Both the position numbers and the translations under genes were made by a program. A stretch of 15,775 nt of DNA from a virus. Location of the stretch: UHGV virus genome UHGV-0129795; one strand, 5' to 3'. This document shows, piece after piece, positions 3,187 to 8,892 of this stretch. Numbering within the stretch: position 1 is the first letter of the stretch; each line of letters begins with the position of its first letter. A model generated the notes under the pieces. That model made no database searches and was not told the DNA's origin. It saw nothing but the letters and a program-made list of their open reading frames with translations.

Positions 3187-5108
3187 TATTCATCTCCAGA
3201 TAATGCCCGCGCGTAATCCGCCAGGGTCTTGTTATTGTTACGGCTGCCTTCTTCCTCCAGCAGGCTGGCCAGAAGTGAATCAAGATTTAGCTGCCAGCGG
3301 GATATGCTTATACGCAGCGCCGCCAGTGCATAAACAAAGCAATCGAGCGCCTCATTTCGTCGTTTTTTGCTGTCCCAGACGATCTTTTTCTTTCCGTCTA
3401 CCCATTTTTCCACCTGCTCTTCAGCTGTTAGTTGTTGGGCCTCTGTTAGATCGTAGATTTCTGGGTTATTCGGGAAATGAACCGCTCCCGCCAGCGGCTC
3501 GTCTCTTTGCGCCACCAGCGTGAAACGGTTATAAATCTGCTCTTTTGCGGTGTCTGTTCCTACCTCTGTGAGGTAAACACCATTCTTGTTACGCTTGCGT
3601 GGCATGTTCGCCACTGGCTTTCCATAAACCGACGCCCCCTTTATAGGGATCACACGAAACAGACCGTGTTTTTTTGAGCGGTTGTAGACGATGGTGGGAT
3701 CAATGCCGCCAATATCCCAGCAAGTGCGGGATATAACCATTTCGAGACCGTTCTGGCGCTTATACGTCCTGTTGATCGCTTCATCAACTCGAGCGAGAGT
3801 CGACTCATCATCATGACGACCCATAATGATAATTTTGTCGATAAGCCAGCTTTCCTCTCCCGGCCCCCATCCCCAAACACGCATTTCGTAACGGTCAAGC
3901 TGGGAGTCAATACCCGCTGTCAGATATGCCACTCGCTCCGGCACAGACGCTTCAAAGTGCTCTTTTCGTTCCGCTAAAACTTCAGCATCGGGTCGTTCAC
4001 CTATTTTCGGTTCCCACGTTTCGCCCAGGGTCGTGTTAACGAAAGTTTTTCGCTTACCCGTATCACCTTTTGTTTTTATCCAGTCCTTGACGATCTGCAC
4101 CCAGGTTGTGAACGGGCTATATGCGGTCCAGATGTGGAATGTAACGCTGTCAGGAGGTTCAATTTCGGTACCGGATGAAGAAAACCAGTTAAGGCCGTCT
4201 CGTGTCCAGATACCTGTTTCATCACAAATATACCTGGCCTCCAGAAATTCCAGCTCCTGTTGTTTAATCACACAGGCATTGTGTTCACAGAGGTAGTAAA
4301 CGCTGGCAGGTTCTCCCGGAGACCATTTGAAGCCAAATGGTGTCTCTTTATCACCGAATTTCAGATACTGCTCTTCCCCACAGTGTGGGCATGGAACATG
4401 GAACCGAAGAAAATGTTCAGACTCCTTAGCAGCTCTTTCTATCTGGCACGTACCTTTGACTTTCGGTGTAGATCCGCGAATGGATTTCGGCCATACAGAA
4501 CCCTCAATACGCTTATCACCCAGAAAGGTGGGAGAACCTTCTTTCTCGATGTCATCATCGAAAGCGGCGAGCTCGTCGTAGCCAGCCACATCAACTGATT
4601 TTTCACGGTAGTTTTTTGCAGCCTTACCGCCCAGGCACCAGAAACCACGACCATTCGAGAAACGCTTCATGCTCAGCGTATTGTCCCGGTGTTTTTTACC
4701 GTACCAGGGAGCAAGCGCCAGCAACGTCGGAATATCACGAATGGTCGGTTCTACATGAGACTTCATGAAGTTTTCAGCATCACCGTCGGTTGGTAACCAT
4801 ATTAGGGAGTTACGCTGTTTATGTTGGATGAAATATGCGTAAACGCCGAGCAACATTTTTGAGTAGCCGACACGAGCCGATTTAACGACATTCACCTCGC
4901 GAATATAGTCATTACCCATCGCATTCATAATTGCACGCTGAAATGGCAGTGTTTCCCAGCGCCCTTCCTGGTAGGCAGACTCTTTCGGGAGATAATAATT
5001 CTCATCTGCCCATTCAACTGCTGTTTGCGGTTGCGGCCGGTACAGCGAACGTAACCCCGCCCGCGCAGAGTGCTGCAGCCCCTTAACCTGACTGTTCGAT
5101 ATATTCAC
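3186..5108 (-). CDS. A: Terminase large subunit A
   Basis: 640-aa ORF (lambda gpA is 641 aa). N-terminus [54 protein letters not shown] and the following several hundred residues are near-identical to lambda gpA as I recall it. Overlaps Nu1 by 26 nt. Confidence 0.95.
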
Positions 5109-5628
5109 TCAGCAACCCCGGTATCATTTCATCCAGCGCAGCTGCCTTGTTCATGGCCTTAATGATGTCCTTCTTGAGGAAATCAATATGTCGGTTCTCC
5201 AGCTCCGGGAAGCGCCGCTGAACCGACAGAGGTATTCCATCGAGAATGCTGGCGATTTCTCCGGCTACCCGCGACAGCACGAACGTGCAGAATGCGGTCT
5301 CCACCACTTCAGCGGACTCTTTTGCATTTTTTAATTCCTGAGCGTCAGCCTGAGCTCGCGTAAGTCGGTGTCGCTCATATTCAATCGTGCCAGGTTGAAG
5401 ATCGGACTCAGAAGCGATACGGAGATCTTCAACTTCCTTCCGCAACTTTTCATTTTCTATAGCTGCATCGCGCGCACTGTACCATTCGATTGCAGCAGCA
5501 GATTCAAAGAGAACCTCATTACCTTTGCCACCACCGCGGACAACCGGCATACCTTGCTCCTGCCAGTTCTGAATCGTTCGGACGCTTACCCCGAAAATTT
5601 CGGATAAGCGTTTTTTGTTAACCTCCAT
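5083..5628 (-). CDS. nu1: Terminase small subunit Nu1
   Basis: 181-aa ORF, the same length as lambda Nu1. MEVNKK..IFG.S.RTIQNWQEQGMPV.RGGGKGNEVL and the C-terminal ..[18 protein letters not shown] match lambda Nu1. First gene downstream of cos, as in lambda. Confidence 0.95.
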   Translation of the reverse strand: MEVNKKRLSEIFGVSVRTIQNWQEQGMPVVRGGGKGNEVLFESAAAIEWYSARDAAIENEKLRKEVEDLRIASESDLQPGTIEYERHRLTRAQADAQELKNAKESAEVVETAFCTFVLSRVAGEIASILDGIPLSVQRRFPELENRHIDFLKKDIIKAMNKAAALDEMIPGLLSEYIEQSG

Positions 5629-5639
5629 GGCTTACTCCT

Positions 5640-5790
5640 GGCAAAAAACAGAGAAAGGAAACAATCAACGGTAAACTTCCGTTTTCCTTGCTCAGCATTT
5701 CCTTTCTGGAGAGAGGACGTTTTTAACAAAAACAATGAGTAAACAAGAAGAAGAACGGAAATGGCATAAACCAGAAAATTTTCATAAATA
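5640..5790. other. cosB-like terminase binding region (R1/R2/R3-like repeats)
   Basis: Lies between the Nu1 start and cosN. Contains AGAAAGGAAAC (about 5651..5665), CCGTTTTCCTTG (about 5680..5692) and AAGAAGAAGAACGGAAA (about 5744..5762), which resemble the lambda R1/R2/R3 gpNu1 sites as I recall them. AT-rich. Confidence 0.65.
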
Positions 5791-5794
5791 GCGA

Positions 5795-5825
5795 GAATCT
5801 GCGCGGACGCCGCCCCGTAACCTGT
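5795..5825. other. cosN cohesive-end site (predicted 12-nt overhang about 5804..5815)
   Basis: Plus strand reads agcgagaatctgcgcggacgccgccccgtaacctgtcggatcgccggaaaggaccc, collinear with the reverse complement of the lambda right-end/left-end junction (AGCGAAAACCCGCGAGGTCGCCGCCCCGTAACCTGTCGGATCACCGGAAAGGACCC). CGGACGCCGCCC occupies the place of the lambda overhang AGGTCGCCGCCC. Confidence 0.8.
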
Positions 5826-5916
5826 CGGATCGCCGGAAAGGACCCGCAAACGATAATAATTATCACTTACACATCGACACACGAAAACCAACCCATTTGG
5901 ACGTCTAAACGTCCAT

Positions 5917-6384
5917 TCATCGCGACAGCGCTGACCATATCGTGCCACCTGGCCGAAGACTCTTCTTCAGTTCCTCGGACACAACATCTGAGATCGCTTT
6001 TACCATTTCAGGGGATAGCTTCACGCCGGTCTTAATTTCGGGACAGATGCCAACATTGATGGCATAGCCTTTTCGTGGGTCGTTCTCTATCCGGCCAAAC
6101 TGAATATTTACAGAGCCACCAATATAACCACCAGCAGGAACACCAAAGCGCGTATTCACCAGGTGCTTAATGGCGAACTCCTGCCCTTCAGCGGTCAGGA
6201 AGGTGTAATAATTTTCCTTTTGATACTCCGTCGCGGTATGGCGTGTTTCAGCGAATCCCAGCTCTAGAAGCTCAGCAGCACCAGATTTGGCTGGCAGATC
6301 ACCAGACTGAAGCGCGCCACGGAAAAACAGCGCATACAGAACATCCGTCGCCGCGCCGGACAACGTGATAATTTTATGACCCAT
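5917..6384 (-). CDS. Hypothetical protein (155 aa), accessory gene adjacent to cos
   Basis: Complete ORF with an AAGGA ribosome-binding site 8 nt upstream of ATG. Not a lambda backbone gene and no family recognised by eye. Occupies the Rz-to-cos interval where lambda carries bor and other accessory genes. Confidence 0.6.
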   Translation of the reverse strand: MGHKIITLSGAATDVLYALFFRGALQSGDLPAKSGAAELLELGFAETRHTATEYQKENYYTFLTAEGQEFAIKHLVNTRFGVPAGGYIGGSVNIQFGRIENDPRKGYAINVGICPEIKTGVKLSPEMVKAISDVVSEELKKSLRPGGTIWSALSR

Positions 6385-6496
6385 GATTTATTTCCTTTTA
6401 GGCGTGAGCCTGTCGCACGGCAAAGCCGCCGAAAGTTAACGGTTTGCCCAGGCTCACAGCTGAAAGACTTTCTACGATGTGCGCGTGCGATGCGCA

Positions 6497-6520
6497 TAAA
6501 AAAGCCGCGTGATGGCGGCT
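6497..6520 (-). terminator. Rho-independent terminator (minus strand)
   Basis: Minus strand reads AGCCGCCATCACGCGGCTTTTTTAT: a 6-bp GC-rich stem (AGCCGC/GCGGCT), 6-nt loop, then a 6-T run. Confidence 0.6.
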
Positions 6521-6649
6521 ACTGTTTGAATATCAGGGTGTTGTTTCGTCTTAACCCTGGTTAATGTAGGCATTCAGCCCGTCGGTGGTGGGACACTGGC
6601 GCACTTAATAAAGAGTAATGGCTGATTACCTCAGAATAAGGAATCAAAA

Positions 6650-6910
6650 ATGTCAGAAGGTTTTGGTTTAAAAGAAAAGGTTGAGCAGTTAGAAAAAGAA
6701 TTAGCCGTACAAAAAATAGCAAATCAGCTTGCTTTTGGAGCACTAATTAAAGCAGTTAATGAGCTGTACCCGAACAAAGATTTATATGATGGGTTGACAA
6801 AATTTGTCCAGGAAAAACTTGATCCTGAACGTGTTAAAAACATCCCTAATCTTCACGAGGCCTTTCTAGAAGCTGCGAAAATACTGAGGACTGACGCATC
6901 TCCTGAATAA
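6650..6910 (+). CDS. Hypothetical small helical protein (86 aa) in an AT-rich island, opposite strand to the phage operons
   Basis: Plus-strand ORF with an AAGGA ribosome-binding site 8 nt upstream of ATG. Codon usage is visibly AT-rich compared with flanking phage genes. Heptad-like charged sequence (KEKVEQLEKELAVQKIANQL). No family recognised. Confidence 0.5.
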   Translation: MSEGFGLKEKVEQLEKELAVQKIANQLAFGALIKAVNELYPNKDLYDGLTKFVQEKLDPERVKNIPNLHEAFLEAAKILRTDASPE

Positions 6911-7278
6911 TTTTATCAACAAAGGCAGTTGTGTCCTCTTGCTTTTCATTCACAATGCATGTGACTGCCTTTTCTAAAGCTGTAATTCGTTCTTCAAGTG
7001 TCATACCCACTCCTGTCATTGGCTTCAAAATGATAAACCCCGCATTTGCAAGTCCTATTTATACCCCGCAGGGGATAAAAACCATATTATCCGCTTGCGG
7101 GGATAACCATTATCAAGCCCACCAGTAGATGGGCTTTGTAATGGCTACTGGCGGTCATTATGCTGATGTAAGGCTTCGGGTCAGATGGCATCGTAAAATG
7201 CGCTGGTGGGTGTGGTCTGTTCATGAATAATTCCAGTGCTCCATTATCGAAGCCCCTCAGTGAAGGGCTTCTGTAATG

Positions 7279-7464
7279 TCAGTCCCGGACGAACGTAACC
7301 TTTGTGGTTATCATTCGCCGCACAAGGCGCGTCGCTTCGCGTTGCATTTCATCAATTACTTTTGGTGTCAGCGGCTGACGCGCATATTTGCGCTCAATCT
7401 CTGCAAAAATCCCGTTCAGCGCCTCGCTGTCTGGTGGGATAACTTCAACGTTTAATCGTGCCAT
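7279..7464 (-). CDS. Hypothetical small protein (61 aa) downstream of Rz1
   Basis: In-frame ATG at 7464 within track ORF 7279..7551, preceded by an AGGA-like ribosome-binding site. Overlaps the Rz1 stop by 20 nt. A 7-bp stem hairpin follows its stop (about 7248..7270). No family recognised. Confidence 0.4.
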   Translation of the reverse strand: MARLNVEVIPPDSEALNGIFAEIERKYARQPLTPKVIDEMQREATRLVRRMITTKVTFVRD

Positions 7465-7723
7465 CGGTTTGTCCTGCCCTGTTGTTCTCGAAAGTCCTGA
7501 TATCAGCCTTATCCCTGTTGCACTGCGCCAGCGCTGACAGCAACGTGACATTCAGGTTAAGACTTGCTCCCCACGTAAACGGGTCGGGTAAATCTGGCTG
7601 GGGTGTTTCAGCCGTCAGGCTGGCTGGTAACGGAACTACCGGAACAGGCACGAAGACCGTTCGCGTATTCGTGCAGCCGCTTAACTGCGCCAGCAGGCAC
7701 AACACGAACAGCACAATCATCAT
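7445..7723 (-). CDS. Rz1: Outer-membrane lipoprotein o-spanin Rz1 (overlapping architecture)
   Basis: Tandem Met codons at 7723/7720 in the +1 frame of Rz. Hydrophobic signal MMIVLFVLCLLAQLSGC with a lipobox (LSGC). Proline-rich mature part (PVPVVPLPASLTAETPQPDLPDP). Starts inside Rz and extends past the Rz stop. Confidence 0.75.
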   Translation of the reverse strand: MMIVLFVLCLLAQLSGCTNTRTVFVPVPVVPLPASLTAETPQPDLPDPFTWGASLNLNVTLLSALAQCNRDKADIRTFENNRAGQTDGTIKR

Positions 7724-8000
7724 CCGCAACAGCAGCCTTGATATCGTTCTCGGTTCTCTGTGACTCCAGTGCGATCTGCTGCCTGACATATTGATTTGTC
7801 TCCAGAATGATGTTCGTTATTGCTACGGTGCGCAGGACATTCGCGGTGATGGTCTCAAAGGAATCAGCGCGCTGTTCTGCATCGTCAGCGCGCCGCTGTT
7901 CCTCCAGAAACTTTCCATGGTAATGATTCGCTGACCAGACAAGACCACCAGCAATACAAGCAATAAACGTTAAAATGAGCGCCCAATAACTCATCTTCAT
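7608..8000 (-). CDS. Rz: Inner-membrane i-spanin Rz
   Basis: 130-aa ORF with an N-terminal transmembrane helix (SYWALILTFIACIAGGLVW) and a charged, helical periplasmic domain. Immediately downstream of the endolysin (4-nt overlap) and contains the Rz1 start. Confidence 0.8.
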   Translation of the reverse strand: MKMSYWALILTFIACIAGGLVWSANHYHGKFLEEQRRADDAEQRADSFETITANVLRTVAITNIILETNQYVRQQIALESQRTENDIKAAVADDDCAVRVVPAGAVKRLHEYANGLRACSGSSVTSQPDG

Positions 8001-8611
8001 ACCAGCAGCGCCGCCCGCGCCTTGTTGTATCGGACCTTACGATCCTCAATACCGTTCAGACCGCCGTTAATGATGCGAGTAACACGATTAATATCGGCAC
8101 CGTAGATCATGCAGCCTTTAGAGGTGTAGAACCATGCAGCTGAGCGCGCAGCCTGTAGTTCCTGTTCCAGTTGTTCAGGTGAAGTCACCAAATCTAACTT
8201 CAGAGCAGCCCCGCAGGTGCGATAATTGTCGAGGCCAGTGATTTGAATTAACCCTCTGCCGCGATATTTCCAGCCGTCGCCGGGCGCTTTGTTACCCAGG
8301 CGGTTGCTATACACCAGATTGGCAATAGCATCCTGACGAGCTGCATGTCCGGATGTTCTGCCAAGGGCATCAGCCTGCTGCTGTGTGATCCTCTTTCCGA
8401 ACGTCGCCACCAGCGCAGATGGTGTGTAGTTCAAATTTTCAACTACAGCGCTAAAGCCACCAGACTCATGACCTACCTGAGCGATGAACATGGCCTGATC
8501 CGCGGGTGCTGTAATGCCGAATTCTTTCATCGCTGCATCTACTGGTTGAAACCAGCGCACAGCCAGTCCGGCGCTGATACCAGCCGCCTTTTGAAATAAT
8601 TGTTGGTTCAT
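7997..8611 (-). CDS. Endolysin, glycoside hydrolase family 19 (chitinase-like lysozyme)
   Basis: 204-aa ORF with AMFIAQVGHESGGF, ANLVYSNRLGN, GDGWKYRGRGLIQITGL.NYR, RSAAWFYTSKGCM and INGGLNGIEDR blocks, which match GH19-type Salmonella phage endolysins as I recall them. Sits between holin and Rz. Confidence 0.9.
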   Translation of the reverse strand: MNQQLFQKAAGISAGLAVRWFQPVDAAMKEFGITAPADQAMFIAQVGHESGGFSAVVENLNYTPSALVATFGKRITQQQADALGRTSGHAARQDAIANLVYSNRLGNKAPGDGWKYRGRGLIQITGLDNYRTCGAALKLDLVTSPEQLEQELQAARSAAWFYTSKGCMIYGADINRVTRIINGGLNGIEDRKVRYNKARAALLV

Positions 8612-8892
8612 TAGTGCCTCAGATGATCAACCAGGCGTGCAACGTTGCCTCTGACGGCCACCAGCACGGAAAGAAAAATAGTATTCGCCACGATAATGGG
8701 CCATGAGGAATGGGGATAAATCCCACAGAGATAGGCCAACGGAACAGCACTGTATGTAACAGTAATCAGCCAGGCTAAACGTGAAACCCAAGGACGATGC
8801 CGCGAATCACCACGACGATAAAACATCAGAGTAATAACAACACAAGCACATAACAGCGCGTTTATAGTTGCTGTCGGGTCATTTAGCTCCAC
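8611..8892 (-). CDS. Holin (small multi-TM membrane protein)
   Basis: 93-aa ORF with 2 to 3 hydrophobic helices and a charged C-terminus. Directly upstream of the endolysin, with overlapping stop and start (TAATG). Confidence 0.7.
   Translation of the reverse strand: MELNDPTATINALLCACVVITLMFYRRGDSRHRPWVSRLAWLITVTYSAVPLAYLCGIYPHSSWPIIVANTIFLSVLVAVRGNVARLVDHLRH

Follow-up and report, generated by a model that had tools for sequence, protein, structure and literature searches.

What lies between the lysis genes and the cohesive end of a lambda-like prophage, and is it part of the phage backbone? The question is raised by UHGV virus genome UHGV-0129795, of which a stretch of 15,775 nucleotides (nt; hereafter the window) was analysed. 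Its phage genes lie on the minus strand, and the interval in question, 5917-7278, separates the spanin gene Rz1 from cos. In lambda, the space between Rz and cos holds bor, a lipoprotein gene on the opposite strand that is expressed in the lysogen. The original prediction for this locus, made without database searches, was an accessory island of two unrelated genes on opposite strands with their own terminators, one of them possibly a lysogen-expressed cargo gene at the bor position. Both open reading frames (ORFs) are present, at 5917-6384 on the minus strand (155 amino acids, aa) and at 6650-6910 on the plus strand (86 aa), and the interval is indeed accessory, the 155-aa gene and a cassette around the 86-aa gene being variably present in related prophages. 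On the sequence evidence it is, however, mosaic and not a two-gene island, with three modules (the 155-aa gene, the cassette and recombination scars) and a third ORF of 52 aa. The interval probably combines a mobile cassette, a moron of the type of HK022 gp22/gp23, with a separate winged-helix late accessory gene of 155 aa and with scars. The parts of the cassette are as follows.

6497 to about 7020 (~520 bp), antiparallel to the late operon: mobile moron cassette, delimited by comparing copies across contexts
6497-6520, minus strand: intrinsic terminator at the left end of the cassette (consensus scan; stem 6520-6503, then TTTTTT)
6562-6567, plus strand: -10-like hexamer TAATGT, 6 nt upstream of helix P1
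6574-6634, plus strand: structured leader RNA (alignment, covariation, covariance model)
6574-6579 with 6620-6625, plus strand: helix P1, TCAGCC with GGCTGA
6580-6587 with 6594-6601, plus strand: helix P2, CGTCGGTG with CACTGGCG
6613-6615 with 6630-6632, plus strand: helix P3, here GAG with CTC (consensus AGAGG/CCUCU)
6650-6910, plus strand: 86-aa cargo gene, start ATG (mEp213 gp72, phrog_21164), with Shine-Dalgarno (SD) sequence AAGGA at 6638-6642
6846-7004, minus strand: 52-aa ORF (mEp213 gp71, phrog_28630), N-terminus MTLEERITALEK, whose SD forms the right end of the cassette
6921-6975, plus strand: hairpin AAAGGCAGT / ACTGCCTTT followed by TTCT, candidate terminator of the cargo gene, with conserved arms and a variable loop

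When copies from different contexts are aligned, homology between them begins at the terminator (6497) and ends at the SD of the 52-aa ORF, about 7010-7020. A minus-strand terminator had been foreseen at 6497-6520, and its stem co-varies in 54 copies (GCCGC/GCGGC, GCCACC/GGTGGC and others); it does not give the two genes terminators of their own, since it precedes the 155-aa gene and constitutes the left end of the cassette. At every site examined the cassette runs antiparallel to the late genes. It is also found between tail genes M and L in locus L016, in another setting immediately adjoining cos, and next to terminase genes of the lambda, HK97 and DUF1441 types; at least nine kinds of late gene come next on the phage strand, including tail L, J, the tape measure, the small terminase subunit, an HNH endonuclease and a holin-like protein. 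Moreover, both its presence and its site vary among related prophages. The aligned copies establish the anatomy, the mobility and the orientation of the cassette. At least 80% of 6520-7280 is kept in only 4 of 5426 complete E. coli genomes, and the leader element occurs in 203 of the 5426 (3.7%), being annotated in none. Each of two pattern scans yielded, as a lower bound, more than 120 IMG/VR contigs with the leader core, and 24 records of the phage collection match the leader by BLAST, including HK022, ES18, HK633 and SPN3UB. Three contigs (L031, L034 and L061) hold two copies of leader and cassette each, at different places of the late region and with different cargo genes. In the tail-operon copies (L016 4833-4860; ES18 locus L236 1759-1794) the start codon of the essential tail gene L comes immediately after the T-run of the phage-strand terminator, so that L must need read-through of the terminator, presumably by Q antitermination.

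The 86-aa cargo gene stands out by its composition, with a G+C content (GC) of 0.372 and a GC at third codon positions (GC3) of 0.276, compared with 0.48-0.57 and 0.44-0.57 for the head and lysis genes. The AT-rich block noticed at first sight is real (sliding-window GC of 0.37-0.43 over 6450-7200 versus about 0.50-0.58 in the head genes), and foreign composition is a property of this gene (GC3 0.276) and not of the 155-aa gene, whose GC of 0.511 and GC3 of 0.506 are backbone-like. Conservation as a coding sequence was set beforehand as the test of this ORF. Among relatives that are 70-91% identical, the ratio of non-synonymous to synonymous substitution rates (dN/dS) is 0.09-0.25 in frame and 0.7-12 in the shifted frames, and by this substitution pattern the gene is truly coding. 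Its protein is rare: only eight clusters at 90% identity resemble it among 5.8 billion proteins, and no more than 9 relatives came out of a profile search in 1.84 billion representatives. Distant relatives of 80-84 aa, the MGSM(S/L)ELE family, stand under the same leader. As expected from the start, neither main protein belongs to a recognised family; Pfam and NCBIfam gave zero matches for the 155-, 86-, 52- and 61/90-aa products, PDB sequence searches gave nothing for the same products, and in PHROGs the small products of the interval fall only in families of 'unknown function'.

The stretch that leads into the cargo gene is more widespread than the gene itself. The 130 nt from the terminator to the start of the 86-aa gene are conserved as strongly as the coding sequence, and in E. 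coli prophages the leader stretch precedes unrelated plus-strand genes, such as a DUF1883 gene (K_EC180) and a 79-aa ORF (NC101). In the IMG/VR contigs, among the matches listed, the cargo ATG lies 49-55 nt past the 26-nt leader core, and 161 instances with 96 unique proteins fall into at least 28 k-mer families and at least 19 clusters that are unrelated by BLASTP. Most of these cargoes are helical proteins of 65-97 aa, again among the matches listed, and larger ones of 169-211 aa are also present. Non-helical cargoes (for example in L112 and L124) include a 154-aa retropepsin-like aspartyl protease with a DTG motif (PF13650, E 1e-5) and DUF1883 proteins (PF08980, E 2e-26).

The leader itself is a structured RNA. 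Covariation was assessed in an alignment of 69 non-redundant copies, most of which were gathered with an anchor outside P2 and a few by a core-anchored scan. The proposed helices are paired in 93.8% of the cells. P2 is 98% paired, with compensatory changes at 5 of its 8 pairs, and P3 shows them at 4 of 6; P1 to P3 together have 57 both-side changes, compared with 16.4 +/- 2.8 after shuffling (0 of 500 shuffles) and 3-24 in slid controls. The cells that are not Watson-Crick pairs comprise 83 G·U and 5 A·C, which indicates that the folded strand is the plus strand, that is, the mRNA strand of the cargo; RNA structure on this strand is established by the aligned copies. P1 and P3 cross, which implies a pseudoknot or alternative states. 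The 3' arm of P3, CCUCU, resembles an anti-SD sequence and lies just upstream of the SD, the leader loop GAUGGCUGA is invariant, and the T-A-x-x-x-T of the -10-like hexamer is invariant over the 69 copies. The invariant loop of P3 holds an AUG (ATGGCTGA), which in the window opens an upstream ORF of 17 codons (6618-6671, plus strand) overlapping the cargo start and in some cassettes (e.g. L146, L133, L105) lies in the reading frame of the cargo. The covariance model R1 matches the window at 6554-6654 with 93.5 bits (E 6e-22), a copy that is itself in the seed alignment; on independent copies it scores 107 bits (HK022) and 67 bits (L025), and ES18 gives 93 bits. It found no match in the whole genome of lambda, in phi80 or in mEp237. 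Rfam 15 has no family for this RNA, its single match being a sub-threshold isrK on the opposite strand, and no literature description of a shared structured leader was found, though Juhala et al. 2000 or the ES18 paper of Casjens et al. 2005 could contain one.

Two sequenced phages show to what kind of element the cassette belongs. In HK022 (NC_002166) the gene behind the leader is 23 ('srb protein; moron gene product'), which converges on gene 22 ('moron gene product'). The arrangement is alike in that a small phage-strand ORF converges on and overlaps an opposite-strand gene of ~73 aa behind the same leader, antiparallel to the late genes; it differs in that the cargo gp23 (cargo family 6) is of another BLAST cluster, the partner ORF is another one, and the site is the junction of tail genes I and J instead of the Rz1-cos interval. 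Genes 24/25 of ES18 ('possible morons', NC_006949), between tail M and L, have the same leader as well. The putative terminators annotated there coincide with those of the cassette, one after the cargo and one on the phage strand, immediately ahead of the late gene that comes next, whereas the 95-aa cargo is of another family and a DUF1327 protein takes the place of the MTLE-type ORF as partner. Juhala et al. 2000, according to the review PMC3594210, define morons as extra DNA that lies between backbone genes and is lacking in related phages, with deviant base composition and their own promoter and terminator, expressed from the repressed prophage; the cassette is extra DNA and its composition deviates. 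The same review has morons recognised as a class since 2000, and the leader and annotation shared with HK022 and ES18 make the cassette a member of that class. Its kind is thus known and was already to be found in sequenced phages; what appears to be added here is its construction from modules and a leader RNA, conserved and co-varying, that seems not to have been described. With lambda bor the cargo gene shares the genomic slot, the orientation relative to the late operon and the accessory nature, but lambda has no copy of the leader, and the 86-aa protein is unlike Bor, having no Pfam match and an all-helical model; the absence of a signal peptide or lipobox goes back to inspection in the original prediction only. 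Because the 86-aa gene sits in a widespread antiparallel late-operon cassette of the HK022/ES18 moron type, its reading as a bor-like, lysogen-expressed cargo is reasonable, and the assignment to a bor-like accessory slot was broadly right.

Considering these signals, the cassette might work in the following way. Transcription of the cargo would start from a weak sigma-70-like promoter on the plus strand, of which only the -10 (TAATGT) is conserved, probably at the foot of P1, giving a leader of ~75-85 nt in which P1 encloses hairpin P2 and P3 follows, before the SD, the cargo gene and the terminator-like hairpin. In the lysogen the cargo would be transcribed from this promoter of its own, and its translation may be set by the leader through a rearrangement of P1 and P3 or a factor on the invariant loop. 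The minus-strand terminator would keep stray phage-strand transcription out of the downstream late genes; during lytic growth, a Q-modified polymerase would pass the terminator and then the cassette, antisense to the cargo, and so silence it. The cargo is one of a group of small helical proteins that diverge fast and may have a conflict-related role, and our guess as to its most likely function is phage-phage or phage-host conflict, e.g. exclusion or counter-defence. We tentatively suggest, and would put it at below even chances, that the ~100-nt leader is an undescribed cis-regulatory RNA serving as a portable and universal platform for expression and translation control in a hypervariable late-operon slot of enterobacterial siphophages. 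The switch of such a platform could be a pseudoknot against SD sequestration, or the binding of a host or phage factor.

Several observations weigh against the interpretation of the interval as a whole. There is no recognisable -35, and a generic scan called no plus-strand promoter in 5500-7700; a scan by eye found no sigma-54, sigma-28 or extended -10 promoter conserved in the block either. P3 has shrunk to 3 bp in the window copy. P1 (TCAGCC/GGCUGA) is invariant save for U·G variants and is uninformative, because this invariance is partly set by the search patterns with which the copies were gathered. The hairpin after the cargo is weak as a terminator, with a 34-nt loop and a stability that is not significant (z = -1.25); its loop varies, including a 15-nt deletion in L016, and other cargo families have a canonical terminator, GCGGCC..GGCCGC-TTT, after the cargo. 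The 52-aa ORF is under weak purifying selection (ratio of non-synonymous to synonymous polymorphism, pN/pS, 0.5-0.97), and the parts of it that are conserved fall on the arms of the hairpin at 6921-6972 on the plus strand. As for the cargo, the AlphaFold model is all-helical and of low confidence (predicted local distance difference test score, pLDDT, 63; predicted template modelling score, pTM, 0.32), which makes the fold search uninformative; Foldseek found no match with E below 7 in the PDB, and PADLOC-DB 2.0 assigned no defence or anti-defence family to the 155-, 86-, 52- or 61/90-aa products.

The other gene of the interval, on the late strand, has a different history. Its features are these.

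5917-6384, minus strand: 155-aa gene, start ATG (mEp213 gp73, mEp237 gp62; related to phi80 ORF x171.28)
6404-6458, minus strand: strong hairpin ahead of the 155-aa gene, in its leader (fold computation)

The structured leader foreseen before this gene was found. The 231-nt stretch folds with -73.8 kcal/mol (z = -3.06), and none of 200 shuffles was as stable. The protein model has a winged helix (residues ~10-75), a poorly modelled variable middle and a C-terminal helix module 'RPGGxIW'. Its 458 relatives, mostly in Enterobacter prophages, share near-invariant N-terminal ~85 residues, a hypervariable middle and a short C-terminal PGGxIW. Phi80 ORF x171.28, N15 gp59 and mEp237 gp62 have the N-terminal ~85 residues, the leader hairpin and the cos-adjacent position in common with it, and differ in swapped middle and C-terminal parts, the phi80 protein being 242 aa long. 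In phi80 and mEp237 the hairpin is conserved together with the N-terminal coding part, and DNA identity (86% and 97%, respectively) reaches about 6501-6509. In some relatives the middle includes a piece of the gpJ-like Phage_Tail_Tip (PF09327, E 1e-6 to 4e-9), a family that the protein of the window itself does not match (Pfam, 0 families). Over its last 39 residues the protein of the window is similar to the C-terminal ends of small 'MTLE...RPGG' ORFs on the phage strand (BLASTP 2e-7, hhalign 86%). The winged-helix fold of the model is shared with the MarR family, but identity to MarR, PadR and TubR is 9-21%, the MarR dimerisation helices are absent from the model, and there is no MarR sequence-family match in Pfam or NCBIfam and no sequence match in the PDB. 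Our best guess, from the model, is a predicted DNA-binding late protein. The gene is the last one before the packaging module, of which four terminase/packaging types are found, and it is missing in the sister prophages L014, L015 and L021, which have the same Nu1/A genes; one sister prophage without the gene retains half of the leader hairpin. Its absence there makes it a recurrent but dispensable late accessory and not a universal packaging component, and the backbone-like composition together with the recurrence before four packaging modules points to a late-operon accessory rather than foreign cargo. The first description of the gene as part of an accessory island stands, including the expectation that it is not in all relatives. 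Pieces of the gpJ Phage_Tail_Tip (motifs GxVFIxxAFI and RPGG) also recur in cytoplasmic-looking small late-strand proteins, fused to a winged helix or to an MTLExRVxxLE coiled-coil start (P0044, P0067, P0095, and ORFs beside other cassettes). A copy of the enterobacterial winged-helix N-domain with 88% identity lies on a 5.5-kb contig of an Archangium violaceum assembly (locus L010, NZ_JPMI01000199.1) and is probably contamination of this myxobacterial assembly.

Other explanations of the conserved block have to be weighed. It might encode a small RNA (sRNA) on the minus strand, similar in kind to IsrK or the anti-sRNAs and made up of a hairpin (6559-6534), an A/U-rich linker and the terminator (6520-6497); this RNA would act in trans, or as an antisense of the cargo leader. 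Such a layout of stem-loop, linker and U-tailed terminator, with a CA-rich hairpin loop, is seen, and isrK (RF01394, an sRNA of Gifsy-1) gives a weak full-length match on the minus strand at 6578-6498. However, its 17.6 bits (E 0.3-0.8) are far under the gathering score of 50, isrK has another genomic place, the hairpin CAGGGT/ACCCTG is missing in diverged copies and broken in 10-12 of 47, no minus-strand promoter is conserved (upstream on that strand the DNA is GC-rich or variable), and the co-varying helices, with their excess of G·U over A·C, fit the plus strand only, so that we regard this reading as very unlikely. Likewise, the models of AgvB (RF02702), AsxR (RF02703), Esr41 (RF02676) and STnc100 (RF02076) had no match at E of 10 or below in permissive scans of 5400-7800 and 6380-7300; AgvB and AsxR are located at the PR' moron site (PMC4104026). 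As to the Pas sRNAs, the reported frequency of PasB seems above the 3.7% of E. coli genomes found for the leader element, a rough comparison that sets different genome sets side by side and bears on frequency, not on sequence. The conserved ends could instead be DNA recombination sites whose hairpin folds in single-stranded DNA (ssDNA) like integron attC, with cargo being swapped or inserted through a site-specific or a replication-linked process and the RNA having no function. Insertion in at least nine contexts with sharp boundaries would agree with this, as would the conserved left end and a conserved right end in 48 of 111 copies (the start of an MTLExRVxxLE-type ORF, within 330 nt downstream), and since folded ssDNA tolerates G·T pairs, the strand asymmetry alone makes no exclusion. 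But no integrase or transposase accompanies the cassettes in the loci compared, and the conserved block spans exactly the stretch from the -10-like hexamer to the SD and ATG with fixed spacing, as an expression signal does. Homologous recombination at conserved flanks, furthermore, explains the swapping of cargo without a dedicated enzyme, and a pure recombination site is in our view quite improbable.

The proteins of the interval also invite other readings. The 86-aa and 52-aa genes converge, and they might be an addiction or exclusion pair resembling toxin-antitoxin systems, in which the overlap of 65 nt at the 3' end of the cargo gives mutual antisense control. This overlap is nearly invariant in relatives that are 70-99% identical, the partner ORF is present in 16 of 16 copies of the cargo family of the window, with start codon, SD and frame kept (one copy has an in-frame 15-nt deletion), and HK022 gp22/gp23 overlap likewise. 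On sequence grounds the 52-aa ORF is a probable but unproven gene. As a partner it is, however, weakly constrained, and it is replaced in other cassettes (by DUF1327 in ES18 and gp22 in HK022) or missing within 330 nt in 63 of 111 copies; neither protein matches Pfam, NCBIfam or PADLOC, and the conservation of the overlap is accounted for by dual coding plus the hairpin. We give little credence, therefore, to a pair of this sort. The 155-aa protein, for its part, might be an accessory of packaging whose winged helix binds near cosQ/cosN and helps terminase. Its modelled fold, the position of its gene always last before the packaging module with four terminase types, the highly conserved N-domain and leader, and the palindromes adjoining cos agree with this. 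Against it, the gene is absent from L014, L015 and L021 despite near-identical Nu1/A and cos, the middle and C-terminal parts vary independently of the terminase type, and the C-terminal module is also found in small ORFs of tail operons, so that a cos-associated function is unlikely. A moron cassette beside a separate late accessory gene, as set out above, is what we prefer.

The remainder of the interval, 7021-7278, consists of recombination scars, and palindromes resembling Fur boxes occur there and elsewhere in the window.

7060-7149, no strand assigned: junction segment containing the hairpin AAGCCCACC/GGTGGGCTT, a pair of inverted repeats of the GGGGATAA type and one of the Fur-box-like sites
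7151-7224, minus strand: 5' remnant of a metallopeptidase gene with its upstream region (match to an E. coli genome)
5851-5865, no strand assigned: Fur-box-like 7-1-7 palindrome CGATAATAATTATCA, 1 mismatch to TGATAATNATTATCA, between the stop of the 155-aa gene and cosN
7101-7115, no strand assigned: Fur-box-like 7-1-7 palindrome, 2 mismatches to TGATAATNATTATCA, upstream of the cassette on the phage strand
4990-5004, no strand assigned: Fur-box-like 7-1-7 palindrome, 2 mismatches to TGATAATNATTATCA

Phages mEp213 and mEp043 match positions 5891-7143 of the window at 99.6% identity with their right ends, where the corresponding ORFs are annotated as hypothetical gp71-gp74. Identity to mEp213 stops at 7143, and this segment meets the metallopeptidase remnant at about 7143-7150. 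In E. coli EH09-18-41 a 'putative metallopeptidase' gene is complete (L147 1954-2574); a 45-aa ORF of the window (7087-7224) is its cut-off start. This start (7151-7224), the 52-aa ORF (6846-7004) and a 61-aa ORF (7279-7464) had been overlooked at first. Of the 5426 complete E. coli genomes, 906 match the 6520-7280 query, most of them through the segment 7087-7149 with the hairpin AAGCCCACC..GGTGGGCTT and a GGGGATAA inverted repeat; there it usually lies immediately downstream of a small hypothetical gene that has a KilA-N gene as its neighbour. Three Fur-box-like palindromes in the window compare with 0.05 expected by chance. 'Fur-regulated protein' is the NCBI name of several relatives of the 155-aa protein, and the phi80 neighbouring ORF x171.8 has the same label.

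The interval is flanked by an ordinary lambda-like gene order (ORF list with domain and PHROG searches), read on the minus strand as follows.

8611-8892, minus strand: holin
7997-8611, minus strand: endolysin
7608-8000 and 7445-7789, minus strand: Rz/Rz1-like spanins
7279-7464, minus strand: 61-aa late-strand ORF (phrog_12811), downstream of Rz1 and just outside the island
5804-5815, minus strand: cosN-like 12-mer GGGCGGCGTCCG, read by eye
5083-5628, minus strand: Nu1 (Pfam PF07471)

After the interval the order on this strand is Nu1, the large terminase subunit, gpW, portal and protease. The cosN-like 12-mer has 10 of 12 letters in common with what we take to be the cohesive end of lambda, and the position of Nu1 fits it. 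The 61-aa ORF lies directly 3' of Rz1 and is followed by a hairpin GAAGCCC..GGGCTTC at 7247-7272; other E. coli prophages have it too, at 90% identity of the DNA and adjoining LysC.

Temperate phages carry host-altering genes chiefly as morons, of which only a few are understood in their expression and movement. Should the leader prove to be no more than a promoter with a 5' hairpin for stability, this is an ordinary moron locus such as GenBank phages already contain. If instead it is the control platform that we tentatively suggest, one signal would tie together the expression of dozens of unrelated, fast-evolving small proteins. One promoter-plus-leader module stands before at least 19 unrelated cargo families at no fewer than nine insertion sites, and the leader is a single testable control element. 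Its covariance model is a sequence handle for finding such cargo genes in any enterobacterial prophage, and the cargo set, mostly small, helical and fast-diverging proteins together with a retropepsin-like protease and DUF1883 proteins, is a candidate list for exclusion or anti-defence functions.

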